From a virus, in IMG/VR virus record IMGVR_UViG_3300043548_000582, positions 25,235 to 89,234 of that record: a stretch of 64,000 bases of DNA. The stretch is one strand, 5' to 3'. The translations under genes and the position numbers were made by a program. Below, in pieces: positions 3,268 to 58,144 of the stretch (positions within the stretch are counted from its first letter, which is position 1; each line of letters opens with the position of its first letter). A model generated the notes under the pieces. The model was given only the letters and a program-made list of their open reading frames with translations, ran no database searches and was not told the origin of the DNA.

Positions 3268-4158
3268 ATGAGTACTAAAAATAAATTCAATGCTAGCATG
3301 TTTGAAAAGATTAAGGACGCCCTTAATAAAACCACTGAAACTTCCAATAGCGCATTTTCGAATGTGATGAAGTTTCCCGCTGGGAAGACATACACGCTTC
3401 GTATAGTTCCTAATCTGGAAGACCCTGAGAAGACATTCTTCCATCACTATACACACGGTTGGAAGAGCAAGACTACCGGTAGTTATATCTCAACGCTATC
3501 ACTGCAAACATTCGGTGAGCGCGATCCAATCACCGAAACATTCTGGTCACTCATCAAGAGTGATGACAAGAATGAGAAAGAACTTGGTAAAGTTATTCGC
3601 CGCAAGGAGAATTGGTTTGTCAATGTTTATGTAATCGATGATCCATCAAATCCTGACAACAATGGAACTGTCAAGATTTTGAAAATTGGACCACAGATCA
3701 AAAAGATCATCGATGATGCCCTTACCGGAGATGGCGCAGAAGAATTCGGTTATCGAATCTTCGATCTTGGTGAAGATGGTGCAAACCTCAAGATCAAAGC
3801 TGAAACCAGTGGAGATTTCGTAACATTTGCATCTTCTGGCTTCTACAACAAGCCTCAGATCAAGCTATCAGATGAACAAATCGATAAGATTTACGAATCT
3901 GCACATGATCTGGAAGCCATCTATCCCAAGAAGACAGTTGATGAGCTTCAAGAAATCTTGGATGTTCATTTTTACGGAAAGAGTGGTGGAAAGACTTCCA
4001 CACCCAAGACTACAAATGCAACACTGAAGCAACCACCAGTTCTAGATGATGACGATGTGAATGATGATATTCCATTCGATTTCCCATCCAAAACAAGTGG
4101 TTCAAGTGAACCAAGTGAAGATGATATCGATAAAATGCTAGCCGACCTAGAAGACTAA
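3268..4158 (+). CDS. 32: single-stranded DNA-binding protein (T4 gp32 family)
   Basis: LRIVP, NVYVIDDP.NP.NNG.VKI, IFD..GANLKIK, acidic C-tail DDIDKMLADLED. Confidence 0.9.
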   Translation: MSTKNKFNASMFEKIKDALNKTTETSNSAFSNVMKFPAGKTYTLRIVPNLEDPEKTFFHHYTHGWKSKTTGSYISTLSLQTFGERDPITETFWSLIKSDDKNEKELGKVIRRKENWFVNVYVIDDPSNPDNNGTVKILKIGPQIKKIIDDALTGDGAEEFGYRIFDLGEDGANLKIKAETSGDFVTFASSGFYNKPQIKLSDEQIDKIYESAHDLEAIYPKKTVDELQEILDVHFYGKSGGKTSTPKTTNATLKQPPVLDDDDVNDDIPFDFPSKTSGSSEPSEDDIDKMLADLED

Positions 4159-4161
4159 TAT

Positions 4162-4602
4162 ATGTTAACACCTGAAGATAAAAAAGTATTATTGGATTTT
4201 GCTGGCCCACTCTTTGCTCAAAGTAAAGAGATCGATTCGATGTATTACAACGACTCGAAGCCAAAAACTGATGGTATTGAAGATTCAGGTATCGCGTATG
4301 GAATTCAAAAGGCGCTTGAGAGAGATTTCGCAAACTCTCAAGCGCCTCGTCGCGTCGAAGCTGCTCATGTACCCATGCCTCAGTATATTCCAATTCCACA
4401 GCATATACCAGCTCCGATGCCTCAATACGCGCCTCCTGTTCCTCAACAAGATCCAGACCAGTTGGAGTTTAAGTTCAACGTAACCGAGCAAGAAAAAACA
4501 AACACGTTGTTGGAAGCTCAAAATAAACTCATCAAACAGTTGATAACCAAGATCGATAAGCTAATATCCATTTCAAATGAAAGCACAAAAGCTAAAACTT
4601 AA
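4162..4602 (+). CDS. hypothetical protein with Pro/Gln-rich linker and C-terminal coiled coil
   Basis: PMPQY repeated twice; tightly packed in the replication cluster. Confidence 0.65.
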   Translation: MLTPEDKKVLLDFAGPLFAQSKEIDSMYYNDSKPKTDGIEDSGIAYGIQKALERDFANSQAPRRVEAAHVPMPQYIPIPQHIPAPMPQYAPPVPQQDPDQLEFKFNVTEQEKTNTLLEAQNKLIKQLITKIDKLISISNESTKAKT

Positions 4603-5302
4603 CAAATCTGATTTCTTATTCTTTCTGGATTCACTATCCAAGCTCAGCGATTCCGCCATTCTAACTATTAAAGATGGCGGAATTTCCGCATTAAGTACTA
4701 ATATAGATGCGTCGTTGTTTTTGTGGAATTCAATGCCAGTCGAGTGTGACGATGATATAAGCACTCTCAATATACCTTCACTATCAAAGCTTAAATCAGC
4801 GTTGGATTTGTGTGAATCGTCCGAGTTTATTGAGTTGACCCTCAATAGAAACAACCTTGAGTATCGGGGATCTTCTGTGAAGTTTAAATATCACCTCCAC
4901 GAAGATGGGGTTCTCATGAAGAGCAAGACCAGTCTGGAAAAGCTCAAGAGTTTGAAGTATGATATATCCACAGTCTTTTCAAGAAGCTTTTTGAAATCTT
5001 TCTTGAAGGCAGCTACTTCTTTTTCAAAAATCACCAAATTACACTTGTATACTGATGATGATCATCTGATGTGGTCATTAAAGGATTCAACCATAGCAAA
5101 CAGCGATGTATTCACTATGAAAGGCAACGAAGTTGACTTTGAGTTGGATTCTTTAATTCTGAACATAGACAATATACGTCTAATGCAGTTCCCAACTGAT
5201 AATATCAATTTAAAAATAAACACATCACTTGGAATTGCTAAAATTGAGTTGAAATATGGGAGCGTCGATCTAAATTATACTATATCAAGTTTAATAAAAT
5301 GA
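4577..5302 (+). CDS. 45: DNA polymerase sliding clamp (gp45-like)
   Basis: 241 aa, two-domain alpha/beta pattern (LNIPSLSKL, LNIDNIRL), position beside gp32. Confidence 0.7.
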   Translation: MKAQKLKLNKSDFLFFLDSLSKLSDSAILTIKDGGISALSTNIDASLFLWNSMPVECDDDISTLNIPSLSKLKSALDLCESSEFIELTLNRNNLEYRGSSVKFKYHLHEDGVLMKSKTSLEKLKSLKYDISTVFSRSFLKSFLKAATSFSKITKLHLYTDDDHLMWSLKDSTIANSDVFTMKGNEVDFELDSLILNIDNIRLMQFPTDNINLKINTSLGIAKIELKYGSVDLNYTISSLIK

Positions 5303-5637
5303 TTAAAAACAAAGTATCAACACTGGGTTATTTTTTAAAGCGTCTGCGTGATTGTGGATTCATAGCTATAAAAGTATATGACAAGTATTCATTTCAAGAT
5401 TCACGAAAGTGGACTGTTATGGTCGATCCCGGTGGCAGAAGCGTTGGTATAACTTGCTACCAAAACAAAGATTACAAGGGTGATGTGTTTTTTGAAATAA
5501 ACGACGGCGGCACCCTCTTTCCAAAGAATTACAATTTGAAAACAAATTCCATGGAAATTGTGATTACTTCTCTTCTGGAAAAGGGAGTAAATCAAAAGAG
5601 CGAGGATAATGAATTTCTAAAAAAAGAAAAGGTTTAA
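5299..5637 (+). CDS. hypothetical protein
   Basis: 112-aa ORF in operon. Confidence 0.7.
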   Translation: MIKNKVSTLGYFLKRLRDCGFIAIKVYDKYSFQDSRKWTVMVDPGGRSVGITCYQNKDYKGDVFFEINDGGTLFPKNYNLKTNSMEIVITSLLEKGVNQKSEDNEFLKKEKV

Positions 5638-5650
5638 TTTAAATACTATT

Positions 5651-5935
5651 ATGAACGATGACGAATCGGATTATACGGAAGACGATATAAAGAAACTTTT
5701 AATTGATTCGTTAAAAATAAAATTAAAAGATGATAGGAAAAAACCTAGTCGGGTTAAAATGAATCAGGCTATAATTTCGTCTTTAAGTGAGTTCATGAGT
5801 TGCTTTGCCCTCATAGGTTATGATTTAGAAGGCAATTACGTCAATCTAAGGATAAGCAAAACACCTATGGATAAATCTGCTTTGGAGCATTCCTTTATAA
5901 AGGAGTTTAGTAAATTTATAAATGAGTCAATGTAA
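5651..5935 (+). CDS. hypothetical protein
   Basis: 94 aa, TAAATA at 5640-5645 5 nt upstream. Confidence 0.7.
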   Translation: MNDDESDYTEDDIKKLLIDSLKIKLKDDRKKPSRVKMNQAIISSLSEFMSCFALIGYDLEGNYVNLRISKTPMDKSALEHSFIKEFSKFINESM

Positions 5936-6216
5936 TGTTGAAGGGTTTATTCAAGAAAAAACTAAGATTTGGAGACGCATATGCGGTGCAAACTGGTGAT
6001 TATGCGGGTCAAATGTACATTTTCATAGAAAAAACAAAGGACAGCTATGAATTCTTGTCAAGTCCGCTGATGGAAAATCGATCAGTGCCTGTGGAAAAGT
6101 TTGACTTTGCGTTGCAGGAAGGTATAATTGAGTATGTCGAAAGGTTGCCTAGATATGTCCGCAATATTACGCGGGCTAAATTCAAAGAAAACGAATCATT
6201 TTATAAATCTGCCTGA
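5935..6216 (+). CDS. hypothetical protein
   Basis: 93 aa, TAATG stop/start overlap. Confidence 0.65.
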   Translation: MLKGLFKKKLRFGDAYAVQTGDYAGQMYIFIEKTKDSYEFLSSPLMENRSVPVEKFDFALQEGIIEYVERLPRYVRNITRAKFKENESFYKSA

Positions 6217-7222
6217 GAGTTATGTGGTTTCCAAGTTTTTTGAACTGGGACCATATCCAACGCAGAACGCATACAACAACACATATCAATGTTGCTGCCC
6301 TATATGTAAAGAAGGTAAAAGTTTTGGAAAAAAACAGAGATGTTTCTACATCCCATCAAACGATTTGATATTTTGCCACAATTGTGGATGGTCTAGCAAG
6401 CCTCTGAAGTGGATTACCACAGTCTCCGGGATGTCGGTATCTGAAGTTTATGCAGAAATACAACAGGGTGAGTTTGATATGATTAATATATCAGATGGCG
6501 AAGTTCCAACCTCTGTTGAAGTGCCATCATTACCTCAAGATTGCATCAATTTATACGACAAAACTCAAGTCTCGTTCTACATTAAAAATAATATAGTTGT
6601 AAATGCCTTCAAATATTTAAAATCTAGAAATCTGCTGAAGGCCATCAACAAACCAGACTCCATGTATATATCTTTGAAGGATTATGGACACAAAAACAGA
6701 TTGGTTCTACCATTCAAGGACGTTGATGGTAAAATTGTATTCTACCAAAGCCGTAAAATATTTGATTGGGACGAAAAATGCAGATACTTATCAAAGCGTG
6801 ATTCAGATAAATCGCTATTCAACATAGATAAGGTCGATTCATCGAATGGTGATGTCATTTACATGTTTGAAGGCCCGATTGATGCGTGTTTTATAAAAAA
6901 CGGAGTCGCGGTCGCTGGCATTAATGAAGGTAATGTGCTGTTTACAAATAAACAAGAAGAACAACTAAGGCAGTTTAAGTTTTTCAAAGTTGTTTGGTGT
7001 TTGGATAGCCAATATTTGGATTCAGCGAGTAGAGAAAAAACCAAAGTGTTGCTAGAATCTGGACAAACTGTATTTATTTGGCCTGAAAATTACGGCAAAA
7101 GATACAAAGACTTCAATGAAATGTGTATAGATAGAGATATTTTTGAAATAGATCAAGAATTTGTCAATAAAAATACATATTCTGGTAAATTGGGTCTTAC
7201 AAGATTAAGAATGATCAATTAA
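6128..7222 (+). CDS. 61: DNA primase (T4 gp61 family); exact start uncertain
   Basis: Zn finger CPIC...CHNC, RLVLPF, TOPRIM FEGPIDACF, KDFNEM. Confidence 0.92.
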   Translation: MSMSKGCLDMSAILRGLNSKKTNHFINLPESYVVSKFFELGPYPTQNAYNNTYQCCCPICKEGKSFGKKQRCFYIPSNDLIFCHNCGWSSKPLKWITTVSGMSVSEVYAEIQQGEFDMINISDGEVPTSVEVPSLPQDCINLYDKTQVSFYIKNNIVVNAFKYLKSRNLLKAINKPDSMYISLKDYGHKNRLVLPFKDVDGKIVFYQSRKIFDWDEKCRYLSKRDSDKSLFNIDKVDSSNGDVIYMFEGPIDACFIKNGVAVAGINEGNVLFTNKQEEQLRQFKFFKVVWCLDSQYLDSASREKTKVLLESGQTVFIWPENYGKRYKDFNEMCIDRDIFEIDQEFVNKNTYSGKLGLTRLRMIN

Positions 7223-7224
7223 AC

Positions 7225-7257
7225 AAAAAACCCATGGATAACCATGGGTTTTTTTTT
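7225..7257. terminator. bidirectional intrinsic terminator
   Basis: A6-CCCATGG-ataa-CCATGGG-T-run between convergent genes. Confidence 0.9.
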
Positions 7258-7278
7258 GATTTTTAGGGTTTTTAAAAT

Positions 7279-7722
7279 TCAGACATACTTGTATTTCGCA
7301 TTCTTGGTCTGCGCCATGAATCCGAGGAATCCTTGGTGCAACGCAGCCAAGTCAGAAGCAACACGGGATATCTTCGTTTGCTGTGATTGTTTCATCTTAT
7401 CAAACACTGTATCAGGCTCCGCATTAGCTAATCTGCTTTGAATGCTTGTTGGGTCTTCGCTATTCAAGACCTTTAAGAATTGATCGATTGAATCAATCCA
7501 TGTTTGCAGTTCACCTACGATTTGCTGGTTTCTTTTTGAGAGGATATCAGCTAATTCGCTTTGTGTAGTGTCCATATCAGTCGATGCGTCGAATGCAGTT
7601 GGGTCAGTTCCATCATCTAGAGAGTTTTCCATAGCATCTCTTTCGAGATCGTCATCCATCATATCAATATCATCGGCTTCTAATAAAACCTTCTTAAATC
7701 TAGCAGCGTATAGATTGGTCAT
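7279..7722 (-). CDS. hypothetical acidic protein, possible internal head protein
   Basis: Start moved to MTNLYAARFKKVLLE, 5 nt after TAAATA (7728-7733, minus strand). Confidence 0.7.
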   Translation of the reverse strand: MTNLYAARFKKVLLEADDIDMMDDDLERDAMENSLDDGTDPTAFDASTDMDTTQSELADILSKRNQQIVGELQTWIDSIDQFLKVLNSEDPTSIQSRLANAEPDTVFDKMKQSQQTKISRVASDLAALHQGFLGFMAQTKNAKYKYV

Positions 7723-7727
7723 AGCAG

Positions 7728-7752
7728 TATTTAGTGCTTTGATGAATAAATA
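7728..7752. promoter_or_regulatory. back-to-back T4-type late promoters (TAAATA)
   Basis: TATTTA 7728-7733 and TAAATA 7747-7752, each 5 nt from an ATG. Confidence 0.75.
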
Positions 7753-7757
7753 TACAC

Positions 7758-8120
7758 ATGGCAAGCAAAGATTCCCCATATTCTACAGGTTTCATGTCTT
7801 CAAATATTAATTTTGATACTGATACCGAACAAATGTTTAGACAGATCAAAAGAGAAGAAAACGAAACACACGAAGCTATTCCAACTTTGCCATATGAAAT
7901 GACAATGTTGCCACAATACTGCGCGAATATTGTCGATAATGCCATGAATGCATCAATTAACATAGAAAATGTACTAAAATCTAAGAATTTTAAAAATAAA
8001 GACGACCTTTTAAAGTTAAAGAACAATTTGGATAAAATGATAAAATATCTCATCAGAAATGTCGATCCAACTCTTGACAAATTCGCAATAAGGCGTAGTA
8101 TGGACTCAAATGACGAGTAA
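7758..8120 (+). CDS. hypothetical protein
   Basis: 120 aa after TAAATA. Confidence 0.7.
   Translation: MASKDSPYSTGFMSSNINFDTDTEQMFRQIKREENETHEAIPTLPYEMTMLPQYCANIVDNAMNASINIENVLKSKNFKNKDDLLKLKNNLDKMIKYLIRNVDPTLDKFAIRRSMDSNDE
8074..8101 (+). promoter_or_regulatory. sigma70-like promoter
   Basis: TTGACA-N16-TAGTAT, ATG 8 nt downstream. Confidence 0.55.
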
Positions 8121-8598
8121 AACAGTGTATAGTTCCATACTGGCATCGCTAGTATCCATCGTATTGTTATCATATGGACTCAGTACTTGGGTTCCTTTTA
8201 CAAACACATTATCCTTACTTGGATCGATTTTGATCATCGCTGGTTGCGTTGTATATGCCAAATATACGGGGGTTCTTTCAAAGAAAGAAGAAAAACCATC
8301 CAGTGATATGGATGATATTGCAAATATGATTTCTGAAATGGATGAAGTCATATCTGAATATGAAAACATGCTTTCAGAGCAACTGGTAAAACTTCCATGC
8401 AACTGCGGTCAGACTTTATTCGAGGGTATTTTGATACCAAATGCCGAGAATATGTGTAAATGTCCATCTTGCAAAGAGACATACAAGGTTATGGTAAGCT
8501 ATGATTCAATTCTGGTTACAGAACCTCTGGAACCAGCTACCATTTATGAAAATTTAACAAAAGCTGCTTCGACCGACATTAATAAAACGCTAGAGTAA
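8110..8598 (+). CDS. membrane protein with C-terminal Zn ribbon
   Basis: two N-terminal hydrophobic helices; CNC and CKCPSC. Confidence 0.7.
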   Translation: MTSKTVYSSILASLVSIVLLSYGLSTWVPFTNTLSLLGSILIIAGCVVYAKYTGVLSKKEEKPSSDMDDIANMISEMDEVISEYENMLSEQLVKLPCNCGQTLFEGILIPNAENMCKCPSCKETYKVMVSYDSILVTEPLEPATIYENLTKAASTDINKTLE

Positions 8599-8607
8599 AC
8601 TGGTCGC

Positions 8608-8847
8608 ATGCAAAACGTAAATATAAAACTGAAAAACGGCAAAGTCGAAATCATGGATGCAGTTTCATTCTCCAGATGGGTTTGTCTGGTCGAAGCTTTC
8701 GACATTATTTTTGAAAAAGCCGCTCAGCTCAATTTGGATATTGAGAGCTTTATAAAACCCGTCGCCATCGAACACTACATCAACGAAAGATTCGATTCTG
8801 TTCTGTGTGATGTGAAGTATGAATTGGAGAATGGTTTATTGAACTGA
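8608..8847 (+). CDS. hypothetical protein
   Basis: 79-aa ORF. Confidence 0.65.
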   Translation: MQNVNIKLKNGKVEIMDAVSFSRWVCLVEAFDIIFEKAAQLNLDIESFIKPVAIEHYINERFDSVLCDVKYELENGLLN

Positions 8848-9663
8848 TAACTCTCGCTCAATTCGTTCAATTGTCTCTTTACCAAGAGAAGGTTCGAAGT
8901 GTGCTTTTAGTTCAGTTGTATCCAAATCTAGTTCTTTGAATCCGATGAGATAATTTTTGAATCTTTGGTCTAGCTGATTTGGGTACGACACACCTTCTGG
9001 TCTATAAAATCGATGGCACCACCTTAAAAACGGCAGGCATAGTGTTCGCTTGCCGTTTTTTCTGTATTTTTCGTGGATGTATCCTTCTTCACCACCAAAT
9101 CCCCTGAACTTTGTATTGAATCCTAACCATGAATCTTTTCTACATGAAAATAATCCAAGACCCTGCGCGGGTATCTCAAAAGGAACTCCGTTAGGATCTT
9201 CGCCTCGCTCATCATTACCCCACACCCCCCACATATTTGACCTCCAAACGAGATCAAAATGGGTAGAAGTTCCTTTAAGATTGTCATAAACCAATGGTCC
9301 TTGTAATAAATTGCCGTCATCTTCATTGTTATCATAAAAGTCTATTAATTTTTTAAGAGATCCCGGTTCTAGAAGAACATGACTGTCTATACTTAGCACA
9401 TAAGGTGTCTCAGCAAGATCAAAAATTTTATTTCTGACAATAGTCGATTTATAATTTGTGAAAGGAAAGTATTGCACTGGTTCATCAACCCAATCTAAAA
9501 ATTCCCGTATGCATTTGGAATGTGTTCCAGATGGATTATTGTCAATCACGACAAATTCGACATTATCCATCACTTCTTTGTGAAATAATCTGATTGATTG
9601 TATTGTGAAATACAAACCGTCCAGATCATCATGAACTGCCATCCCAATTGTAAGTTTCCTCAT
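8836..9663 (-). CDS. GT-A glycosyltransferase with polypeptide-GalNAc-transferase-like motifs
   Basis: GT2-type N-terminus (TIGMAVHD, VVIDNN, RNKIF), SIDSHV (DxH), GLGLFS...GFGGEEG, WCHRFYRP..YP. Confidence 0.85.
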   Translation of the reverse strand: MRKLTIGMAVHDDLDGLYFTIQSIRLFHKEVMDNVEFVVIDNNPSGTHSKCIREFLDWVDEPVQYFPFTNYKSTIVRNKIFDLAETPYVLSIDSHVLLEPGSLKKLIDFYDNNEDDGNLLQGPLVYDNLKGTSTHFDLVWRSNMWGVWGNDERGEDPNGVPFEIPAQGLGLFSCRKDSWLGFNTKFRGFGGEEGYIHEKYRKNGKRTLCLPFLRWCHRFYRPEGVSYPNQLDQRFKNYLIGFKELDLDTTELKAHFEPSLGKETIERIERELSVQ

Positions 9664-9674
9664 ATTTTAATTTA

Positions 9675-9989
9675 TTAAAAATTGAGTTTTTTGCAAGTAT
9701 TTTCAACACATTCAGATGTTGTCGATGTGTTTAATGGAATTATCGTGGTGGTTGTAGTTGTGGTAGTAGTTGCTGGGAGGGTTGTGTTTATAGTCGATGG
9801 ATCTGTTAATGAAGGAGACGGGGGGATTCTTACTTTCATTATCGGAGGTAGTGGAAACGGTGATTTTGTTGTATTTTCGACCGGAGGAGGGAATATATAC
9901 TTTATTTTAGGAGGACAGCACGGTATTTTTGGAGTTGCCGTTGTTGTCGAAGTAGTGGTCGGTTCTGGTGTTGTACCTGTCGTTTCCAT
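9675..9989 (-). CDS. mucin-like Thr/Pro-rich protein B
   Basis: Thr runs, PCCPP, C-terminal CVENTCKKLNF; paralogue of 9992..10465. Confidence 0.75.
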   Translation of the reverse strand: METTGTTPEPTTTSTTTATPKIPCCPPKIKYIFPPPVENTTKSPFPLPPIMKVRIPPSPSLTDPSTINTTLPATTTTTTTTTIIPLNTSTTSECVENTCKKLNF

Positions 9990-9991
9990 AA

Positions 9992-10465
9992 TTAATATCC
10001 TAATTTATTAACACATGGTTTGCAAATTATACTGACTGTTGTGGATGTTGATGTCGATGTTGTAGTTATCGGCTGTATCGTAGTTGGAGTGATAGTTGTA
10101 GTTGATATAATCGAAGATGGGTCCGTCAATGGATAGCTCGGAGGAACTTTGACGGTTATGGCTTCAGGAAGAGGCGTCGGGGTTTTCGTAGTTACTATTA
10201 CCGGTTCAGGAGGATGCTCTATAATCAACTCAGGGCAACTTAAACATGGGTAGCATGTCGTAGATCCCGGAATTGGGGGTGGTGTCGTGGCTGTAGTTCC
10301 AGTGGTAGTACTTGTTGTTGTACTTGTGAGTGGGGGGGTAGTTGTAGTGGTAGTAGTTGTAGTGGTAGTAGTTGTGGTACTACCTGAAGGTGGCGGGGTA
10401 GTTGTAGACGAACCCTCTGGTGGAGGTGTAGTTTCGTCTGGTGGAGGTGTAGTTTCGTCTGGCAT
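9992..10465 (-). CDS. mucin-like Thr/Pro-rich protein A
   Basis: PDETTPP x2, long poly-Thr run, CYPCLSCP, C-terminal CKPCVNKLGY; 2-nt gaps to both neighbours. Confidence 0.75.
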   Translation of the reverse strand: MPDETTPPPDETTPPPEGSSTTTPPPSGSTTTTTTTTTTTTTTPPLTSTTTSTTTGTTATTPPPIPGSTTCYPCLSCPELIIEHPPEPVIVTTKTPTPLPEAITVKVPPSYPLTDPSSIISTTTITPTTIQPITTTSTSTSTTVSIICKPCVNKLGY

Positions 10466-10467
10466 AC

Positions 10468-11232
10468 TTACATCCTGTTAAATTCGACTGTTTCTACAGT
10501 TGTTGCATTTTCGGTTCCTTGTGTGTGAAAATTTTTCAAAAACAAAACACTTGGAGCACTTAATGACGAGATAGGAGATGAATATGAAAAACCGGGTCTA
10601 AATATGTCAGCGGAATCAGGATTGAAATTTATATTAATCGAAGTTAATTCTATGAATTCAGTTGATCCGTCTGGTTTAAAATCTATAGTGATCTTATCAG
10701 TGTTTGTATATTTAAATCGCATGGTTTTGTACGACTTGCCACTTGATAATATCTTAAATTCTGGATTTATATTTGAAAGTTCATTATAGTATGTAACATT
10801 ATCATTAAAATCTCTTATAATTAAACTATTTCGTTTTATACTACCTAAACCAACACCGCTTCGAGTATTTGATGATAAAGCAAACAATCCAGTGGTGTCA
10901 AATGCTATACAAATCCCTAGAATTGAATCACTTTCCCCATTACCTTCGAGTATTATGCGTTCATAATTTTCAGTTAATATGTAATTTCCATCTTCATCTA
11001 GTAAAAAACCAGATAAGGGAACAGTTCCGCTATATCCCAAATAATGACCCGGAATTGAAGACAGAGATGGTTTTGTTGATGTTAAGAAAGTTGCAAATGC
11101 AGCTTCATTACCAGATATAGCATACTGAAAACTCCAAATTATGTCATAATTTGGGTTGTAGTTCTTTTTTTCATCTACAAATGCTATATATTTTGCATTT
11201 GCTGGTAATTTAACATCAGATGGAAAGCTCAT
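10468..11232 (-). CDS. putative L-type (ConA-like) lectin-fold virion protein
   Basis: beta-rich; GHYLGY, ICIAFDT (cf. legume lectin AVEFDT), PGFS. Confidence 0.5.
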   Translation of the reverse strand: MSFPSDVKLPANAKYIAFVDEKKNYNPNYDIIWSFQYAISGNEAAFATFLTSTKPSLSSIPGHYLGYSGTVPLSGFLLDEDGNYILTENYERIILEGNGESDSILGICIAFDTTGLFALSSNTRSGVGLGSIKRNSLIIRDFNDNVTYYNELSNINPEFKILSSGKSYKTMRFKYTNTDKITIDFKPDGSTEFIELTSININFNPDSADIFRPGFSYSSPISSLSAPSVLFLKNFHTQGTENATTVETVEFNRM

Positions 11233-11233
11233 A

Positions 11234-12778
11234 TTATAAAGTATAACCGATTAGTCGCACGCTACCATTCTCGTCAGAGTTTCCTATCGACACTCGAAGT
11301 GCAAAAGATGAAGAATTTCCGTTTGAACTCAGGGGAATCATGCATTGAGTGGTTGAAGTGGAACCTCCGTAAAATTTTGTGCTTGATTTATTTATCAAAT
11401 ATTCATTTACACCAACAACGTAGAGATTTGTTGGTGTATTTAAAAGTGATGTATTTAAAGCAGCACATATTATGCCTTGCTGACCATTATTCGTTAAATT
11501 CAACGTACTTTCCAGCAAGACCGTTTTCGCATTCGCTGGTAATGTTTGCGGCAATGCTAATATGGTAGGATAAACTGTAATAGTTGACGTTTCAGACATA
11601 TTACTAGTTACAGTTTTTACAGTGATTGGAGTTTTCAAGAATTTCACATATCCTGAAGAATTTACTATCTCTGTACCTGAAAGCGTGGTTACAACACCAG
11701 CTGATACAAATGGAACTGAGCTTACTCTTCCATAATCATCAACAATAAATGGAGTTTCCACAGTTGTTGATGGTATAATTGGCGGTAAACCAATTTGTAT
11801 ATTGCCACTCAACGTGCTGACAGGAGTTCCAGTTACAGTAACTCCATTCAATGTTCCAGATAGTGTATTTCTAACAGTGAGGGTCGATGTTACTAAATTA
11901 TCAGCGATAGCTTTGATAATGAAATTGGTCCCGACTGCACTCAAGGATACATTAGTTCCACTGTTCAAGCTAAACGTTGTCGAAGATGCTGGGTCTCCAG
12001 TTACCCCATACAATGTTTTATTTGTTAAATTAGGAACATTGAAGTTTCCACCAGAGCCTCCGTAAGTGGTGCCTATGGCGGCGGATAGATCTGGGTATAC
12101 TGATCCTGAAACACTCTGACCATTGCATAGAAGCCATCCATAAGGAACAGTTCCTCCAGAAACAAACGGTGTTATCATACCTACAGGTATTCTGGATGCA
12201 GAATTACTTACATAAAATGTATTAAGAGAAAGCGGAGTCGCCCAAGATAGATTTCCATAGATATCTGTTGATAAAAAGAAATCATTTTGTAATCCACCAG
12301 ATGGCCATTTATAATTGACAGATTCTATCGATAGTTTGGACGGCAATGATAGATATTCAGAGTTATATGGTGAAATTCTGTTTGTTGAGATCCCACCACC
12401 GCTCAAGTTTAAAGTATTCGTGGATGCGTCGATGTCAATACTGTTACCTGCTGTGTAAACAGATCCTACAACTCTCCAATTATTGATATCTGTATATAAA
12501 TTCCCATTGAATTTACATAAAGTTTTGTTCACAGTATTGAATACCAAGTCTCCTACCTGTGCATATGAGAAAGTAATGGGATTACCTTCGCCCAAATATT
12601 TATTACCAGCGACTAGACCACCGAGAGTTGAGCCATCTCCGATAAACAATCTATCAATGTCGGTTGCATATCCAAGTTCACCGCTATCTAGAAGTATAAG
12701 TTTTCTGTCTGAATCCTGTCCTTGACGAACGATGAGTTTCAGAAGAGTATTTTGGAGGATTTCAATTGAATTTGACAT
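11234..12778 (-). CDS. tail fibre with Mtd-N-like head and tail-collar domain
   Basis: VRQG..R...L.SGELGYATD..RLFIGDG; collar IPVGMI..GWLLCNGQ..YPDL..IGTTYG..FNVPNL. Confidence 0.85.
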   Translation of the reverse strand: MSNSIEILQNTLLKLIVRQGQDSDRKLILLDSGELGYATDIDRLFIGDGSTLGGLVAGNKYLGEGNPITFSYAQVGDLVFNTVNKTLCKFNGNLYTDINNWRVVGSVYTAGNSIDIDASTNTLNLSGGGISTNRISPYNSEYLSLPSKLSIESVNYKWPSGGLQNDFFLSTDIYGNLSWATPLSLNTFYVSNSASRIPVGMITPFVSGGTVPYGWLLCNGQSVSGSVYPDLSAAIGTTYGGSGGNFNVPNLTNKTLYGVTGDPASSTTFSLNSGTNVSLSAVGTNFIIKAIADNLVTSTLTVRNTLSGTLNGVTVTGTPVSTLSGNIQIGLPPIIPSTTVETPFIVDDYGRVSSVPFVSAGVVTTLSGTEIVNSSGYVKFLKTPITVKTVTSNMSETSTITVYPTILALPQTLPANAKTVLLESTLNLTNNGQQGIICAALNTSLLNTPTNLYVVGVNEYLINKSSTKFYGGSTSTTQCMIPLSSNGNSSSFALRVSIGNSDENGSVRLIGYTL

Positions 12779-12789
12779 ATTTTATATAT

Positions 12790-13872
12790 TTAAAACTTGA
12801 ATACTGGTATCGCATATGAACCAGTCCCATATGAGGTTTCTATAACTATAAATCCAGCGGATGATAATAAGATATTATTACTAGTCAACCCGTTTGATGA
12901 GATTGCACTTATAAGGGTTTGATTTGTGTATGTTGTCTGTAAAGGATTCCCGTTGAATACAGATAACATGGAAGTGTTTGTCTCATTTCCAGTAAACGAT
13001 TGTGTTATAGTCGAAGACAGTGATGTAATTTGACCCTTTGAATTGTATGTGAAGTTGGAAAAACTAGCATTTCCTCCACTACCCAATATGTCTTTCAATG
13101 AAATTACATTGGAGTTATTTTGAATAGTTGCGCCATCAACACTTGCGATGATGGAGACTAACTTCCCAGCACTTAAACTTAATCCATTTCCAATAGCGTC
13201 AGGGCCGATGGAACTCAAACCAACAGAACCCAAAGGCACGCTCGTCAAGGACAGAACACCACTATTGAACGAGAAACCAGATCCCACATTTAATCTTATG
13301 GTATTGCCGCTTCCACCTGTCAATCCGTCGCCAAATGAGCTTGATGCTATGTGGTTTTGATTGATTTGAAGGACGGATAATTGATTTGTTGTGGAAATCG
13401 TGAGGGTAACTCTATCTACATTGGCAGATAATCCATTGGAAGCGGTTGCAACCAACCCACCTTGGTTATAGGCAGCGCTTTGATCAAAATTAGCGCCACT
13501 TATCGCGTTATTTTTGATGCTTAATTGTCTCGATGTGTTATAGTATAGACTTGTGTTATCAGGATTGGTTCCAATAAATACCCAAGAAGACAATTGACTA
13601 TAATCCGATCCAGATAATTGATACAAGAACCCGTTTTCATTTACAATATCCCCTCGAACTGCATTTTGGAGAGTGTTTCTTGTATTTGAAACAGTCAAAG
13701 GATCGTGATTTAAGTTGCCAGCAACCACACCTCCAGATAGAATACCATTCCCTATGAATAAACGTTTAGTATCAACTGTAAATCCAAGCTCTCCTTGCTC
13801 AAGTATGATTCTCTGACGTTGTGAATCCGTTCCTCTTCTTACTTTAAGTTTGATTATTGAAATATCTGCCAT
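12790..13872 (-). CDS. tail fibre-like protein with Mtd-N-like N-terminus
   Basis: KVRRGTD.QR..L.QGELGFTVDTKRLFIGNG; Gly/Ser-rich repeats. Confidence 0.8.
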   Translation of the reverse strand: MADISIIKLKVRRGTDSQRQRIILEQGELGFTVDTKRLFIGNGILSGGVVAGNLNHDPLTVSNTRNTLQNAVRGDIVNENGFLYQLSGSDYSQLSSWVFIGTNPDNTSLYYNTSRQLSIKNNAISGANFDQSAAYNQGGLVATASNGLSANVDRVTLTISTTNQLSVLQINQNHIASSSFGDGLTGGSGNTIRLNVGSGFSFNSGVLSLTSVPLGSVGLSSIGPDAIGNGLSLSAGKLVSIIASVDGATIQNNSNVISLKDILGSGGNASFSNFTYNSKGQITSLSSTITQSFTGNETNTSMLSVFNGNPLQTTYTNQTLISAISSNGLTSNNILLSSAGFIVIETSYGTGSYAIPVFKF

Positions 13873-13874
13873 AA

Positions 13875-14558
13875 TTATGAAATTCTATTCCAAACATACA
13901 CACCGTATGATGGATTTGTTAGTGTTATAGGGGTTATTTGTGAAGCTCCAACCACTCCAGAAGTTCTTCCAACAGAAGGTACCACTGCGTTTCCCTCTAA
14001 TCTATAAGAAACTGGGTTGGTTTGTAACCTTCCACCTCTCGCTAAGTAATTTGTAGAAATCAAAGAATCTTTATCTGCGGAAAAGTCTTCAATTTCGTTT
14101 GCTATGAAGTGAAAGTGATCCGGTATATTAGAAGAAGATAATGTTTGTTGATAAAAACCCCCAGTATTAGCACCTACGGTCACAGTTTTGGAAACACCCC
14201 CAGCATCAGTTCCGGTGCCGACTCCTGTTATCACCATTCCCTGTGATACTTGAACCCACGACGTTCCTATAAAGCGGGTAGCGGGGTTTGTGGAATCCAA
14301 TGTTAATAAGCACGACCCTACTGGATAAATGTAATCAATTAATTTGATTAGATTTGGCTGAGATGGGAAAATTATGTTTCCTGCGCTCAAGGAACCCGTT
14401 ACGACAGCCCCATTGTTCTCCATACCCAGAGAAAGAGATGATTTGTTGCCTAAACCGTCATAAACATCGGTTATATTTGCAGATGAAAGCGATTCTGCTT
14501 CCACATGCAACAAAGATCCGTATAAATCAGATATGAACTGATCGGTGAGTGATTTCAT
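13875..14558 (-). CDS. baseplate protein with gp10 C-terminal-like domain
   Basis: IYPVGS...NPATRF.GT.W..VSQG...GVG, PSYGVYVWNR. Confidence 0.75.
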   Translation of the reverse strand: MKSLTDQFISDLYGSLLHVEAESLSSANITDVYDGLGNKSSLSLGMENNGAVVTGSLSAGNIIFPSQPNLIKLIDYIYPVGSCLLTLDSTNPATRFIGTSWVQVSQGMVITGVGTGTDAGGVSKTVTVGANTGGFYQQTLSSSNIPDHFHFIANEIEDFSADKDSLISTNYLARGGRLQTNPVSYRLEGNAVVPSVGRTSGVVGASQITPITLTNPSYGVYVWNRIS

Positions 14559-18515: not shown

Positions 18516-19157
18516 TTAAGGCGGTAGCGTAGTTGTTGTCGTAACCGGACCCGGTGTGGTTGTTGATGTTGGACCCGGTGTGGTTGTTGGGGACGGTGTG
18601 GTTGTGGATGCTGGTATCGGGGGTGTTGGTGGTGGGGTTGTCGTATTTAAGCTTTCAGCTTCTACTAAGAACCCTCCTTTATCCACAGAAAATATAAACT
18701 GTTTGTTGTTATCAGATACTTGCATAATATTTGCATATATATGCTTCATATCCCCGATACTTTCAAAATAATCGGATGTTATTATTTTGAAAGGTTGCAC
18801 TATTGAACATTTGTCACCATTTATATATTCTATATTGACTTCGGCAGATAATAATTTATATCTGGATGTTTCTGATGGATAATAGAGGTGGGATACTTCA
18901 TTTGAAAGTATTGAACTTATTTTATTATAAAGTATTTCTGGAATTATACTGTCAACTCTGTAGTCTTTACTGAATGAATTTTCAAAAATAGCAGACTCTC
19001 CATCACCCCAATTGATTCTTAGATACATGGGAATTTCAGACTCTGATATCCCACTCAATACAAAGGTCACAGAAGTCAAATCATACAGTTTGACTTCTGG
19101 TAATGTTGAAGATAGTGCGGTTGCTGAACTAGCAAATCCAATTGTGTAAGTATTCAT
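18516..19157 (-). CDS. PKD-like virion protein with mucin-like C-terminal tail
   Basis: INWGDG, SHLY; tail TTTPPPTPP..TTTPGPTSTTTPGPVTTTTTLPP. Confidence 0.7.
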   Translation of the reverse strand: MNTYTIGFASSATALSSTLPEVKLYDLTSVTFVLSGISESEIPMYLRINWGDGESAIFENSFSKDYRVDSIIPEILYNKISSILSNEVSHLYYPSETSRYKLLSAEVNIEYINGDKCSIVQPFKIITSDYFESIGDMKHIYANIMQVSDNNKQFIFSVDKGGFLVEAESLNTTTPPPTPPIPASTTTPSPTTTPGPTSTTTPGPVTTTTTLPP

Positions 19158-31138: not shown

Positions 31139-32049
31139 TCCACAACATTCTCAAGGGCGAGGAGACAGGCAAATGCATTGATCTCCTTGTCCATGACAAT
31201 CGAACTTTTAAACAGGCTATCTGCTATCTGCAAGATAGCCTGTTTCTTTTGAATCTCATCAAAATCTACATTGTAGATGTAGTTCAATAGACCACTAAGC
31301 AACTGCTCGTAATCATTATCAAACAGAGCATCATTTTCAATGAGATACTTTCTAGTTTGTAATGATGATTTGTTTTGTATGCCAGCCCAAATGTAAGAAT
31401 ATAGATCTTCTGAGCTTGTTTTTACACCAATGTTCAGGGTTCCTGACACTGAATGCTTTTGAAGCTCATTGATGCACTTTCTCAAGTCTGGAAAGAAACC
31501 CTTAACTAATCTTACAACCTCTTTATTCTGCTCTGGGGGAACAACAACACCTTCATTGTTCAGAATATACAGACATCTCTTTACAGCACCTTTAAGAGTC
31601 GGCTTGACATCGACGCTTTGACATCTGGATTGCAATGCATCCATGATTTTGTGTCGATAATTGGCTGTTAGAATGAATCTCGCAACCGCAGAGTATTCTT
31701 CGATCAAGTTTCGCAGGCATTTCTGTGATTCTTTCGAAAGACCATCCGCTTCATCGAGAACAACAACTTTAATTCCCCCGTTAAAGCTTTTGGTCCTTAT
31801 GAAACCCGTTACTTTAGTTCGAATGTTATCAATACCAGTCTCATCTGAAGCGTTTATATACAAATAATCACACTTCAAGATGTCTTGGACCAAGATTCTT
31901 GAAATTGTCGTTTTCCCTGTGCCTGCTGCCCCTGTAAAGAGGAAATGTGGTATTTCATCAGTGAATGACTCGAAGAATTCTCTGGTATTATCAGAGATGC
32001 ACATGTCATTCAATGTTTGCGGTCTGTATTTTTCAATCCATAAATTCAT
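31135..32049 (-). CDS. 44: clamp loader AAA+ subunit (gp44/RFC small)
   Basis: LWIEKYRP, GAAGTGKTT, NASDETGID, LDEAD, LQSRC, FPDLRK. Confidence 0.95.
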   Translation of the reverse strand: MNLWIEKYRPQTLNDMCISDNTREFFESFTDEIPHFLFTGAAGTGKTTISRILVQDILKCDYLYINASDETGIDNIRTKVTGFIRTKSFNGGIKVVVLDEADGLSKESQKCLRNLIEEYSAVARFILTANYRHKIMDALQSRCQSVDVKPTLKGAVKRCLYILNNEGVVVPPEQNKEVVRLVKGFFPDLRKCINELQKHSVSGTLNIGVKTSSEDLYSYIWAGIQNKSSLQTRKYLIENDALFDNDYEQLLSGLLNYIYNVDFDEIQKKQAILQIADSLFKSSIVMDKEINAFACLLALENVVD

Positions 32050-32795
32050 AGTTCTTGCAATCCTAGTTTTTTGTCGGATCTATTCTCGATAGTGCGCACC
32101 AGATTGGCACAATCTAACAAACTATCGAATGATCCTACGTCGAACCAGAGGATATCATGAAGACAGCATACGTCAACCCCTTCTTTCTCATTCAATGCCT
32201 TGATCAGATCAACGATTTCAAGCTCGCCTCTCTTAGAGGGTTTGAGATGCTTTGCAATCGAGACTGCTTCTTTTGTGAAGACATAAAGACCAACAACAGC
32301 ATCATTTCCAATGTATGTTTGGGGCTTTTCGATGATATCAATCAGTTCATTCTCTTCATTCAGTGTTGCAACGCCGTAATCATTTGGATTTTTAACTTTA
32401 TAAGTAAAAATGGTGTTGGCAGGCGCATCTAGATTTTGATCTCCGATGAAAATATTATCCCCCAATATCAATGCAAGACGATCAGCATCATTTGCCCAAT
32501 CCCCAGCTATCGTAAAGGCTTCAGGTAATCCATTTGGCTTATCTTGTATCTTGTATTGAAAGTTCATGCCATATTTGGCACCATTTCCAAGATAATTGTA
32601 ATACATCACCAGTTGTTCCTTGTCAGCACATATAATCAAAACATCGGTGTATCCCATCTTTTGCAACGTTCCCAAACTGTATGAAATTACAGGTTTGTTG
32701 TATACTGGCAGCAATTGTTTTGATATACCGAACTGTGTTAGTGGATAGAGTCTAGTTGCTCGTCCTCCCGCTAAACATATCGCCTTTTTAATCAT
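32046..32795 (-). CDS. rmlA: glucose-1-phosphate thymidylyltransferase
   Basis: LAGGRATRLYP, SKQLLPVYNKP, Q..PNGL.EAF, LILGDN, EKP, PSKRGELEI, WFDVG. Confidence 0.92.
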   Translation of the reverse strand: MIKKAICLAGGRATRLYPLTQFGISKQLLPVYNKPVISYSLGTLQKMGYTDVLIICADKEQLVMYYNYLGNGAKYGMNFQYKIQDKPNGLPEAFTIAGDWANDADRLALILGDNIFIGDQNLDAPANTIFTYKVKNPNDYGVATLNEENELIDIIEKPQTYIGNDAVVGLYVFTKEAVSIAKHLKPSKRGELEIVDLIKALNEKEGVDVCCLHDILWFDVGSFDSLLDCANLVRTIENRSDKKLGLQEL

Positions 32796-33687
32796 TTAAT
32801 ACCTCCTCTAAGATTTCTTGTTCGTCTCGCATTTTCATAATGGTGGATGCTTTTGTGTTATCCAAAACACAATTGCTTCGACCAGCGATTATTGGAATTT
32901 CCGTGATATTTACGAATTCCCATTCCGGGTTGTTCCTGCGGAACTTTTCCATTATGTTTACAACTTCCTTGGTTGTTAATGGATTTGGATTCACTACATT
33001 GTATATCCTATGTGGGCAACCCATATTATATGATTCATGTATAAACAAGTCATGTATAAGTGTGTTTGTGAATTCGCAAAGATCAGGAATGTAAGTCTTG
33101 CTGTTTTTATAATCGATCAAAGTATTATACTTTTTGATTTTTGATAGATAGCTGCGAGCATCATGCAATCCGCTGATTGGCATCCTAATTCGGAGGATGC
33201 TGATCGGCAAGTGTTTTGAAAGAACCTCAAATGCGTGTTTGGTTTTGCTGTAGAATGAACTTTCATCATTATACAATCCGAAGTTTGGAGCGTCGTCTTC
33301 GGTGAATTCTTTTTCGTAACCTGTGTATATACATCCGCTACCGATATGTATGTATCGTTTGCCCAAGTCTGTAGTCAATTTGGCACACATCAATGGAGAT
33401 GTCACATTCAGCCGCCAACACTCTTCTTTTTTGCTTTCAGCTTCGTCGATGTTTGGTCTACCGGTGAATCCACTGCAATTGACGACAACATCTGGTTCAA
33501 AATTGAAATTTAATTCATACCAGAATGTTTTCGGATCGTGGTAATTGAGGGTTTTAGAGTCTAGGACTTTGACAGTGTGACCCTCTGACATCAGATGGTT
33601 GCCAATATGATTTCCGATGTATCCGTTTCCTAGAATTAAAATCTTACGCTTGATCGTATTCTTCTTCAATAAATTCTTTGATGTCAT
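32788..33687 (-). CDS. NRS/ER (UER1)-type bifunctional 3,5-epimerase/4-keto-reductase (RmlD-like SDR)
   Basis: GNGYIG, G.TGRPNID..E, GCIY, F.E.D.PNF, SFYSKTK, LRIRMPIS, RSNCVLD.TK. Confidence 0.85.
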   Translation of the reverse strand: MTSKNLLKKNTIKRKILILGNGYIGNHIGNHLMSEGHTVKVLDSKTLNYHDPKTFWYELNFNFEPDVVVNCSGFTGRPNIDEAESKKEECWRLNVTSPLMCAKLTTDLGKRYIHIGSGCIYTGYEKEFTEDDAPNFGLYNDESSFYSKTKHAFEVLSKHLPISILRIRMPISGLHDARSYLSKIKKYNTLIDYKNSKTYIPDLCEFTNTLIHDLFIHESYNMGCPHRIYNVVNPNPLTTKEVVNIMEKFRRNNPEWEFVNITEIPIIAGRSNCVLDNTKASTIMKMRDEQEILEEVLND

Positions 33688-56490: not shown

Positions 56491-57516
56491 ATGCTTAATT
56501 TAAATGATAAAACAATCCTAGTAACAGGAGGTAGAGGATTTATTGGTAGTAATTTTATAGAATATATTATAGAAAATTATGATAATGTATCTATAATAAA
56601 TGTTGATAAACTAGGGACTGGTTCTAGACAAATATATCCAGATGAGGACTCATATAATTATGAGTTCTTAAATATTAATAATTGTAAATATCAATTTATT
56701 AAAATTGATTTAGTTGATAAAAAAGAACTGGATTATGTTACAAATAAATACAAGTTTGATTACATATTCCATTTTGCTGCTGAATCTCATGTTGATAGAA
56801 GTATTGCTGATCCAACATATTTCATTAAAAATAATGTAGTTACAACTGCAAATCTGATGCAATCTATTTTGGAAAATCAAACACATAATCCAAGGATTGT
56901 TAATATCTCAACAGATGAAGTTTATGGTGATTTGGACTATGATGATGATCCATTCGATGAGGATTCACCCTTGAATCCAAGAAGCCCATATTCTTCATCC
57001 AAAGCGGCCAGTGATCTTGTATCCCTTTCATACTACCATACATTTGGCATGGATGTTGTTGTTACCAGATGCTGTAATAATTACGGAGAGCATCAATATG
57101 ATGAGAAGTTTATTCCCACAATCTTGAGAAAATTACTGAACAAAGAGAAAATTCCGGTTTATGGCAAGGGAAATAATGTCAGAGAATGGATTCATGTCAG
57201 GGATCATAATAAGTGTCTCTTGGAAGTTGCCGAAAGAGGAATGTCAGGAGAGGTTTACAACATCGGCAGCGGTTTCGAACTCTCGAATTTACAATTGATC
57301 GAAAAAATCCTTGACGAACTCTATGGGCGTGGTAAAGTCCCCCTGTCGAGTGTGATCGAACATGTCACAGACCGTAAGGGTCATGATCTCAGGTACGCCA
57401 TACACTCGAAAAAAATGAAATACAAAACCAAACTGGTGGATTTTGAAACTGGTTTGAAAGGAACAATTATACACTATAAAGAAAAATACTATCATGGGAC
57501 TCTTCGATTACATTAA
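56491..57516 (+). CDS. rmlB: dTDP-glucose 4,6-dehydratase
   Basis: VTGG.GFIGSNF, HFAAESHVDRSI, STDEVYG, PYSSSKA, RCCNNYG, REWIHV.DH, DRKGHDLRY. Confidence 0.95.
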   Translation: MLNLNDKTILVTGGRGFIGSNFIEYIIENYDNVSIINVDKLGTGSRQIYPDEDSYNYEFLNINNCKYQFIKIDLVDKKELDYVTNKYKFDYIFHFAAESHVDRSIADPTYFIKNNVVTTANLMQSILENQTHNPRIVNISTDEVYGDLDYDDDPFDEDSPLNPRSPYSSSKAASDLVSLSYYHTFGMDVVVTRCCNNYGEHQYDEKFIPTILRKLLNKEKIPVYGKGNNVREWIHVRDHNKCLLEVAERGMSGEVYNIGSGFELSNLQLIEKILDELYGRGKVPLSSVIEHVTDRKGHDLRYAIHSKKMKYKTKLVDFETGLKGTIIHYKEKYYHGTLRLH

Positions 57517-58144
57517 ATGTGAAATGCCTCTACCTGAATGGCCAGAGGATATGTCTGTGGGAACGTTTCAGACAAAAAGCCTACCAGCAATGTGTATGGC
57601 TACATACAAGATTGCCGCTGATGGTTATCTATATCTGAAGATGGAAGAATCAGAGTGGATTAATGATCCCAATGACATCCTTGGGGGTTATTTCAAATAT
57701 GGTAAAGCGGAATGGTGTCGGTGTGATGAATTCACAGGTGTGATTACATTCTATGAATATTTTCAACATCGTAATTATACAACGGATAGATCTAATTATT
57801 TTGAAATTGGGCATATCGACTACCAAGCTAAAATTGTAAACGGTAAAGTTGAGGCTATTGTTTGCTCCGAGAATGTTGAACCAAAAGAGCTTTCAGAAGA
57901 AGAGCTAGCAAAGAAGCTAGCTGAGAGTGCTGAACGTGTGAAAGAGTATCGGCAACGTAATATTAAATACCGTAAAGAAAATCCATCACCAACTCAAAAG
58001 TTGATAGATGACATTGACAATCTGATCAAGAATAAACCAGCTATTGCCGATCAGTCGGATTACATTCAAATTATTAACAATATTCAAAAGCTCGTCGCTG
58101 GTTGGCGGGAAACAAATGATCCATGGTATGAAAAAGAAGTATAA
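57494..58144 (+). CDS. hypothetical protein (MGLFDYI family)
   Basis: MGLFDYIKC..FQTKSL..Y.I..DG.L. Confidence 0.75.
   Translation: MGLFDYIKCEMPLPEWPEDMSVGTFQTKSLPAMCMATYKIAADGYLYLKMEESEWINDPNDILGGYFKYGKAEWCRCDEFTGVITFYEYFQHRNYTTDRSNYFEIGHIDYQAKIVNGKVEAIVCSENVEPKELSEEELAKKLAESAERVKEYRQRNIKYRKENPSPTQKLIDDIDNLIKNKPAIADQSDYIQIINNIQKLVAGWRETNDPWYEKEV

Follow-up and report, generated by a model that had tools for sequence, protein, structure and literature searches.

The 64,000-nt stretch analysed here (the window) covers positions 25,235 to 89,234 of the IMG/VR virus record IMGVR_UViG_3300043548_000582 and carries, at the end of its baseplate and tail fibre genes, four genes that probably form a phage-encoded cassette for mucin-type protein O-glycosylation. 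They specify a glycosyltransferase (GT), two small Thr/Pro-rich proteins (TP1 and TP2) and a protein with a lectin fold (Table 1), and the GT is predicted to act on the poly-Thr tracts of dedicated proteins encoded upstream of it. The four genes lie at the 3' end of a continuous minus-strand run that extends back to about 28160 and encodes gp25-like, gp6-like, gp10-C-like, collar-domain and Mtd_N fibre proteins; the plus-strand genes begin below 8836. In the list of open reading frames (ORFs), the gaps GT/TP1, TP1/TP2 and TP2/lectin-fold are 11, 2 and 2 nt, in agreement with the original prediction, which was made from the letters of the sequence and had described four tightly packed minus-strand genes closing the baseplate/fibre run. 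Its description of two Thr/Pro-rich neighbours also stands: the T+P content of TP1 and TP2 is 47% and 54%, and their best 20-aa windows hold 14 and 18 T/P residues.

The linkage of the GT to poly-Thr proteins was examined in related phages, in the best 80 of 277 IMG/VR matches (56–82% GT identity) with flanks of up to 6 kb, by applying a regular expression for a C-terminal tail motif to the ORF directly before the GT. A filter requiring a T+P content of at least 35% over the whole ORF had been dropped because it missed most partners, long proteins bearing the tract only at the C-terminus. The co-occurrence of the GT with T/P-rich ORFs that had been predicted from the window was borne out, as in 53 of the 80 loci the upstream ORF carries poly-Thr and a Cys/L-x-[F/Y] tail and ends 11–18 nt before the GT start. 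After dereplication, this adjacency is found in 31 of 50 GT clusters (90% identity). The first version of the regular expression matched 72 of the 11,093 stop-to-stop frames of the phage loci, and two of the 72 matches were false. Tail-bearing proteins have lengths between about 100 and about 1,900 aa and unrelated N-terminal parts, and many loci carry two or three tail-bearing ORFs in tandem, as does the window. In the remaining 27 loci, no tail-bearing ORF adjoins the GT, but the flank of 14 of them does hold a poly-Thr ORF.

Two other arrangements were seen in this set. In six loci (L056-L058, L064, L065 and L067), the GT gene (~6001-6825) is inverted relative to the fibre and lectin genes, has no poly-Thr ORF nearby, and follows a homologue of the 79-aa ORF at 8608-8847 (+) of the window, which indicates that the module boundary was rearranged in that phage lineage. 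In two others, the ORF preceding the GT (L026:4949-6004 and L059:4917-5999) resembles a radical-SAM enzyme (CNAGCWxCP motif), and T/P-rich ORFs lie near it (L026:1519-4650, 6855-8372 and 8376-9605). The T/P proteins close to these radical-SAM-like ORFs end in a lone Cys (...SCP, ...TAC or ...IEC) and lack the Cys/L-x-[FY] tail, and judged by their sequences they are a different acceptor design.

The tail-bearing proteins share a module of about 100 aa that consists of poly-Thr, a Cys pair (CxPC or CC), a Pro-rich core of ~45 aa, a second poly-Thr tract and the ending C-x(2-10)-C-x(1-3)-L-x-[F/Y]-stop. TP1 has a short T-rich N-terminus, CC-PP, the Pro-rich core, poly-Thr and C-x4-C-KKLNF-stop, while TP2 has a long poly-Thr/Pro N-terminus, CxPC-x2-C, the Pro-rich core, a T/S-rich tract and CKPC-VNKLGY-stop. 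The two are paralogous over the Cys-flanked, Pro-rich core (BLASTP E 1e-5). Both have the long Thr/Pro/Ser-dominated tracts without a globular fold by which mucin-like (PTS) domains are recognized. TP1 orthologues with 58–62% identity are present in phage loci L002-L004, and the TP2 orthologues are 51–60% identical; this retention as proteins in related phages, at 51–62%, argues that TP1 and TP2 are genuine genes rather than low-complexity noise. Over the full 89-kb contig, dense T/P tracts occur in three ORFs only: TP1, TP2 and the C-terminus of a 213-aa ORF (18516-19157) situated in the baseplate gene run, which has an INWGDG-type (PKD-like) motif and no Pfam match. Neither TP1 nor TP2 belongs to a PHROG family, and TP2 also has no NCBIfam family. 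Both are without a hydrophobic N-terminus or signal peptide, and the lack of a hydrophobic N-terminus fits modification in the cytoplasm.

We regard it as improbable that the glycosylated T/P proteins are intracellular or released products, serving as decoys or shields against host defences or in the surroundings of lysed cells, and not virion parts. Such a role would suit two very small proteins with no recognizable fibre or baseplate domain, and also the bacterial counterparts described below, which resemble exported peptides and not structural proteins. However, the genes of TP1 and TP2 sit within the late structural operon, spaced by 2 nt, neither protein has a signal peptide, and their C-terminal module is also the end of proteins as long as ~1,900 aa. 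One of these, of 1,370 aa (L055:1876-5985), contains a right-handed beta-helix (Pfam Beta_helix, E 1e-12) of the kind found in tailspikes and depolymerases; a Pfam search of ten long or mid-size tail-bearing proteins found no domain besides this one.

Relatives of the GT also occur in bacteria, and 80 of 464 GTDB stretches encoding one were compared (45–70% identical to the phage GT, mostly 50–56%). In a representative search, the GT domain was found at ~50% identity inside bacterial proteins of 400–1,350 aa, fused to PqqD, an HprK-like kinase, a sulfotransferase, methyltransferases, GT25, GT10 or TPR repeats. Small leader-bearing ORFs, 68 in all, are present in 45 of the 80 loci, usually just upstream and on the same strand, and often in tandem. 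The leader consists of RRxxLK, a hydrophobic stretch, W-x-x-P-[VIL]-[VIL] and P-A-H-A. In many of these proteins a poly-Thr/Ser/Pro tract follows directly, and in others a domain comes first and the T-rich tract later. The motif WxxPx[VIL] is known as the leader motif bound by the PqqD-type recognition elements (RREs) of RiPP pathways, which modify peptides after their synthesis by ribosomes (PMC13381572). None of the 80 phage loci has a match to the WxxP...PAHA leader, and PqqD is missing from the phage GT; a search for the Cys/L-x-[FY] tail in the bacterial loci gave nothing, so substrate recognition must differ between the two settings. Unless poly-Thr is the acceptor, it is hard to account for the linkage of one GT family to poly-Thr polypeptides in two unrelated genetic contexts.

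An NCBIfam search of the bacterial precursors gave only a sub-threshold match to a twin-arginine translocation (Tat) signal. Tandem arrangements occur in the bacterial loci L115, L117, L119 and L128 (~2–4 kb), from Alphaproteobacteria and other phyla, where two to four precursors of 70–115 aa, each with a Tat-like RRxxLK, WxxPVV...PAHA and near-pure poly-Thr, adjoin multidomain GT proteins in a RiPP-like multi-precursor layout. One further entry stands apart: L082, a 3.6-kb contig binned in a Flavobacterium metagenome-assembled genome (MAG), encodes a GT that is 70% identical to that of the window, as against 45–56% for the other bacterial matches. It is probably phage DNA misplaced in the MAG, and not evidence of the host.

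The GT is a single globular domain from residue 1, in which no ricin-type lectin domain, further Pfam domain, membrane anchor or segment, or peptide-docking domain was detected. All of the top-ranked PDB matches listed by Foldseek for its AlphaFold model (pLDDT 96, pTM 0.92) are polypeptide N-acetylgalactosaminyltransferases (ppGalNAc-T) of family GT27, with E ~1e-13 and TM 0.65–0.75. A second structure search (VIA), independent of Foldseek, compared the model with 48,161 chains and agreed: mouse GalNAc-T1 (8v9q) ranked first (Z 23.1, 257 residues, 3.0 Å) and Toxoplasma TgGalNAc-T3 (8uhv) second (Z 21.9), the GT27 alignments covering 250–257 residues at 2.6–3.0 Å. The comparison with ordinary GT2 and GT7 structures that the original prediction had called for thus leaves GT27 on top, followed by K4CP (GT2, Z 18.9), RmlT (18.2), TarS (17.0), SpsA (16.3), GT7 (13.0) and the glycocin enzyme SunS (12.7). 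Among ESM Atlas clusters, a chordate cluster with GT2, 7C and ricin domains matches at TM 0.82, along with bacterial GT2+7C clusters, and Glyco_transf_7C (PF02709) is present in 20–91% of the members of related clusters. In BFVD, there is one close viral structure neighbour, an uncharacterised protein of an uncultured phage with 31% identity.

An alignment of 56 family members, down to 46% identity, shows that D41, D93, H95, E193, H197 and H217 are invariant. D93-S-H95 forms a D-x-H motif on the GT-A fold, and H217 lies in W-C-H-R-F. The motifs SIDSHV, GLGLFS...GFGGEEG and CHRFYRP...YP, which had been picked out beforehand, are all present. GT27 enzymes have a metal triad made up of DxH and a His; the invariant D93-x-H95 matches its DxH, and the invariant H217 is a candidate for its His, as the structural alignment of model residues 1-275 to GalNAc-T1 chain 115-397 covers the corresponding region.

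By sequence, the GT matches Pfam PF00535 (Glycos_transf_2) with a score of 39.6 bits (cut-off 23.3; E 6.7e-10), as do all 56 family members, and it has no PHROG or NCBIfam family. A phmmer search against PDB sequences gave no match, and the family profile matched TarP, K4CP, TarS and DPMS through the N-terminal nucleotide-binding half only. No homologue was found by tblastn in 50,697 GenBank phage records at E 1e-3. The family itself is large (>2,200 protein clusters at 90% identity), and a relative is encoded by 277 of 279 matched IMG/VR stretches. Membership of GT27 was considered and rejected on sequence similarity, the structural alignments with GT27 having ~16% identity. With its GT27-like fold and GT2-like sequence, the enzyme is a separate GT-A lineage that resembles ppGalNAc-T in shape and probably also in action. 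The original prediction of a ppGalNAc-T-like enzyme is supported by the fold and the invariant DxH...H residues, with the limit that the sequence is GT2-like and the protein is not a GT27 member.

The same data raise the question of whether the GT targets a non-protein acceptor, either a host envelope glycopolymer, as prophage TarP does with wall teichoic acid, or phage DNA, with the poly-Thr proteins being unglycosylated flexible linkers or fibres. We consider this unlikely. The best PDB profile matches, TarP, K4CP and TarS, are indeed polysaccharide or teichoic-acid GT2 enzymes, the other GTs and dTDP-sugar genes of the contig are typical for surface or DNA glycans, and some related loci have no nearby poly-Thr ORF. 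Against this, the GT gene directly follows a poly-Thr-tailed ORF at a distance of 11–18 nt in 31 of 50 dereplicated lineages, its homologues in bacteria show an independent link to poly-Thr proteins and are fused to the peptide-binding PqqD, the closest full-length solved folds are those of the peptide-acting GT27, and the membrane segment usual in GT2 enzymes of lipid-linked glycans is missing.

The fourth protein of the cassette (254 aa) has no Pfam, PHROG or NCBIfam match. The top Foldseek matches of its model (pLDDT 84) are legume lectins, and VIA aligned it with seven L-type lectin entries (Z 12.5–13.8, 161–179 residues, 7–16% identity), among them the M. jannaschii lectin domain (7exo), ERGIC-53, Emp47p, VIP36, the SraP module and peanut lectin. 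The modelled fold is an L-type (legume-lectin/ConA-like) beta-sandwich, which bears out the earlier description of a lectin-like neighbour, and the protein is a conserved partner of the T/P genes. In most loci whose flanks are long enough, homologues with 30–71% identity separate the fibre genes from the poly-Thr genes, and the order fibre, lectin-fold, T/P gene recurs in related phage loci. The lectin-fold gene stays beside the GT even in loci without poly-Thr genes.

This proximity suggests another acceptor. The GT might modify structural proteins of the phage, chiefly the fibres or the lectin-fold protein, with TP1 and TP2 acting as chaperones, spacers or adaptors. In L070, L078, L080 and L056-58/L064-67, the GT adjoins the lectin-fold gene with no poly-Thr ORF between them, a T/S-rich stretch is frequent at the end of the lectin-fold proteins, and in mycobacteriophages the targets of GTs are major structural proteins (summary in PMC12619734). 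Even so, poly-Thr is the feature common to the partners of the phage and bacterial GTs, and the conserved tail is found on the poly-Thr proteins and not on the fibres, so we give this explanation little credence.

Several observations weigh against a mucin-type cassette acting on poly-Thr proteins. At the sequence level, the GT is an ordinary Pfam GT2 protein; its family profile found no GT27 chain in PDB at E values up to 1, and PF02709 does not match the GT of the window and is weak in five of the 56 members (best E 0.056). The lead of GT27 over GT2 structures amounts to 3–4 Z units on a GT-A fold that is very common. About 13 of the 80 phage loci have no poly-Thr ORF within 6 kb, and in some loci without poly-Thr the GT comes after the lectin-fold gene or is inverted. 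The homologues of the 213-aa protein in four complete relatives of ~200 kb are 167–187 aa long, match residues 1–169 only and lack the Thr/Pro tail. The putative association of TP1 and TP2 with the virion is read from operon position, and a search of sequencing runs for the stretch listed no RNA run. Having set these points beside the linkage in phages and bacteria, we still favour the cassette, with the GT glycosylating the poly-Thr tracts of the proteins encoded before it.

The window is taken from an IMG/VR viral contig of 89 kb, with an estimated completeness of 43%, that carries a T4-type contractile-tail module (a sheath together with gp25-like, gp6-like, gp10-C-like, collar-domain and Mtd_N proteins); complete relatives are ~200 kb long and have terminal repeats. 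The fibre and baseplate-periphery proteins include a 514 aa collar-domain fibre (Pfam Collar, E 4e-17), a 360 aa Mtd_N fibre (Mtd_N, E 2.5e-9) and a 227 aa gp10-C-like protein (Gp10_C, E 7.5e-13), and related loci keep these three genes in the same order. The full-length stretch was found only in sequencing runs labelled as freshwater metagenomes, possibly the source sample itself. A marine origin, suggested by sheath matches to cyanophages and pelagiphages, was rejected on account of these labels. The T4 late-promoter box TATAAATA occurs five times in the window, which is not above chance, with none before the cassette genes, and scans for sigma-70 promoters and terminators gave background level only. 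Among the plus-strand genes, a 294-aa ORF at 60116-61000 (+) matches the group I intron endonuclease family TIGR01453 (above cut-off) and is of the homing-endonuclease type.

Table 1. Positions of the candidate cassette and of other features of the contig that are discussed in the text (window coordinates, except in the last row).
Feature	Position	Strand	Size	Basis or remark
GT gene (candidate cassette)	8836..9663	-	275 aa	
TP1 (candidate cassette)	9675..9989	-	104 aa	
TP2 (candidate cassette)	9992..10465	-	157 aa	
Lectin-fold protein gene (candidate cassette)	10468..11232	-	254 aa	
Three fibre/baseplate-periphery genes directly upstream of the lectin-fold gene	11234..14558	-		Pfam, PHROG tail fibre families
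Thr/Pro tail of the 213-aa ORF 18516-19157	18516..18650	-	~42 aa	Translation; no Cys motif; possible third acceptor, lineage-specific
RmlA-like glucose-1-phosphate thymidylyltransferase	32046-32795	-		NCBIfam TIGR01207, E 4e-65, 219.6 bits, below equivalog cut-off
Weak RmlD-like reductase	32788-33687	-		TIGR01214, E 1e-17
RmlB-like dTDP-glucose 4,6-dehydratase	56491..57516	+		TIGR01181, E 5.5e-101, 337.8 bits (cut-off 365); Pfam Epimerase, E 1.4e-62
Three GT genes in a row, same contig outside the window	G000:C1 ~3706-6040 (L163:455-1261, L164:317-979, L164:976-1788)	-		GT10 fucosyltransferase-like; GT2 + Glyco_transf_7C; weak GT2

Other sugar genes are present on the contig. RmlA-, RmlB- and RmlD-like genes occur in the window (Table 1), with a Pfam Epimerase match also in the 32046..33687 region; the 216-aa ORF that comes after the RmlB-like gene (57494-58144) has no family match, and no RmlC was noticed. 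Going by these assignments, the phage may make its own dTDP-6-deoxyhexose, a possible donor supply for the GT. The row of three further GT genes outside the window adjoins an AAA_28/dNK-like kinase and an HNH endonuclease, and its products could extend an O-glycan or modify DNA or host glycans.

A probable course of events can be outlined for the cassette. The GT would be a soluble, metal-dependent GT-A enzyme that initiates polypeptide O-glycosylation and, as its gene is co-oriented and tightly packed with late structural genes, it is probably produced together with them in the cytoplasm of the infected cell. There it would move a sugar from a nucleotide-sugar donor to the Thr hydroxyls of the poly-Thr tracts of TP1 and TP2, with the T/P tail of the 213-aa baseplate-run protein perhaps being a further acceptor. 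Since the module is also found on proteins of ~1,900 aa, and on one with a tailspike-type beta-helix, it is probably a glycosylated stalk of peripheral appendages, with an end used for anchoring or recognition, and TP1 and TP2 would be reduced to little beyond the stalk at the baseplate periphery. More speculatively, the lectin-fold protein might bind host glycans or hold the glycosylated stalks, the Cys tail might be a docking or anchoring signal, and the GT10-like, GT2/7C-like and GT2-like enzymes might extend the glycan, with the RmlA/B/D-like proteins supplying a 6-deoxyhexose donor.

A wider interpretation is offered tentatively, as we would put its chances at somewhat less than even. The poly-Thr/Cys-capped module and the GT might constitute a portable 'glyco-stalk' system in a large clade of ~200 kb aquatic T4-like phages, by which varied N-terminal domains, or mucin-like brushes alone, would be presented on the virion. 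The enzyme would have come from, or been given to, bacteria, where an as yet undescribed pathway of wide occurrence would use an RRE to guide the same GT to poly-Thr peptides with Tat-type leaders. Mucin-type O-glycosylation would then have an equivalent in prokaryotes and viruses, in which bacteria recognise the substrate by an N-terminal leader and phages by a C-terminal Cys tail.

Up to now, glycosylated phage virions have been demonstrated chiefly in mycobacteriophages, on major structural proteins. A literature search turned up no account of poly-Thr proteins paired with a GT27-like enzyme in a phage, the closest parallels in print being mycobacteriophage virion glycosylation and RRE-guided peptide tailoring. 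Here, a mucin-type initiating enzyme and dedicated mucin-like acceptors are apparently encoded by one phage, and the pairing of GT and poly-Thr is common in uncultured phages and missing from the records of cultured ones. If the cassette works as proposed, aquatic phages would carry a glycan coat or brush at the baseplate periphery that could alter adsorption, protection from proteases and grazers, and particle stickiness, and the annotation of 'hypothetical' genes in the tail fibre region would be affected. The bacterial cassettes point to glycosylated poly-Thr peptides and proteins as a family that has gone unrecognised, and a small, soluble GT could become a tool for producing mucin-like glycopeptides in bacteria.

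Among known systems, the eukaryotic ppGalNAc-T enzymes of GT27 (8v9q, human GalNAc-T2 2ffu/4d0z, and 8uhv) have the nearest whole-protein fold. The phage GT shares with them the D-x-H, a later invariant His in an H-x-F-like context (the candidate third metal ligand), a GLF...GGE segment and a link to Thr/Pro-rich tracts. It differs in having ~16% identity, no profile-level match and only a faint 7C motif, and in being a 275-aa soluble protein without the ricin-type lectin domain, type II membrane anchor or secretory-pathway setting. The GT2 glycopolymer transferases (TarP 6h1j, TarS 5tze, K4CP 2z86 and RmlT 8bz4) have the same GT-A fold (Z 16–19) and give the best profile matches over the nucleotide-binding half, but they carry DxD instead of DxH, use teichoic-acid or polysaccharide acceptors, and score lower in structure than GT27. 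The neighbouring 254-aa protein has the beta-sandwich of L-type lectins, from which it differs in its low identity (7–16%) and lack of a Pfam match, and sugar binding is only putative.

RRE-guided RiPP tailoring (lasso peptides, and the linear polyphosphorylated peptides of Popov et al. 2026, PMC13381572) resembles the bacterial side of the family, where GT homologues are fused to PqqD/HprK-like domains and multi-copy small precursors carry a WxxPx[VIL] leader. The phage version has neither RRE nor leader and has a C-terminal Cys/L-x-[FY] tail instead, and the published RRE-guided systems phosphorylate Ser and do not glycosylate poly-Thr (PMC13381572). Mycobacteriophage GTs, according to the accounts of Freeman et al. 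2023 given in PMC12619734 and PMC12801897, O-glycosylate structural proteins of their own virions at C-terminal regions, with shielding as the proposed role. Those accounts describe a phage-encoded GT acting on the phage's own proteins, which are the predicted acceptors here as well, and name the major capsid and tail-tube subunits as the acceptors; in the present case they would be dedicated poly-Thr proteins whose conserved tail is capped by Cys and whose place is the periphery of a T4-like baseplate/fibre module.

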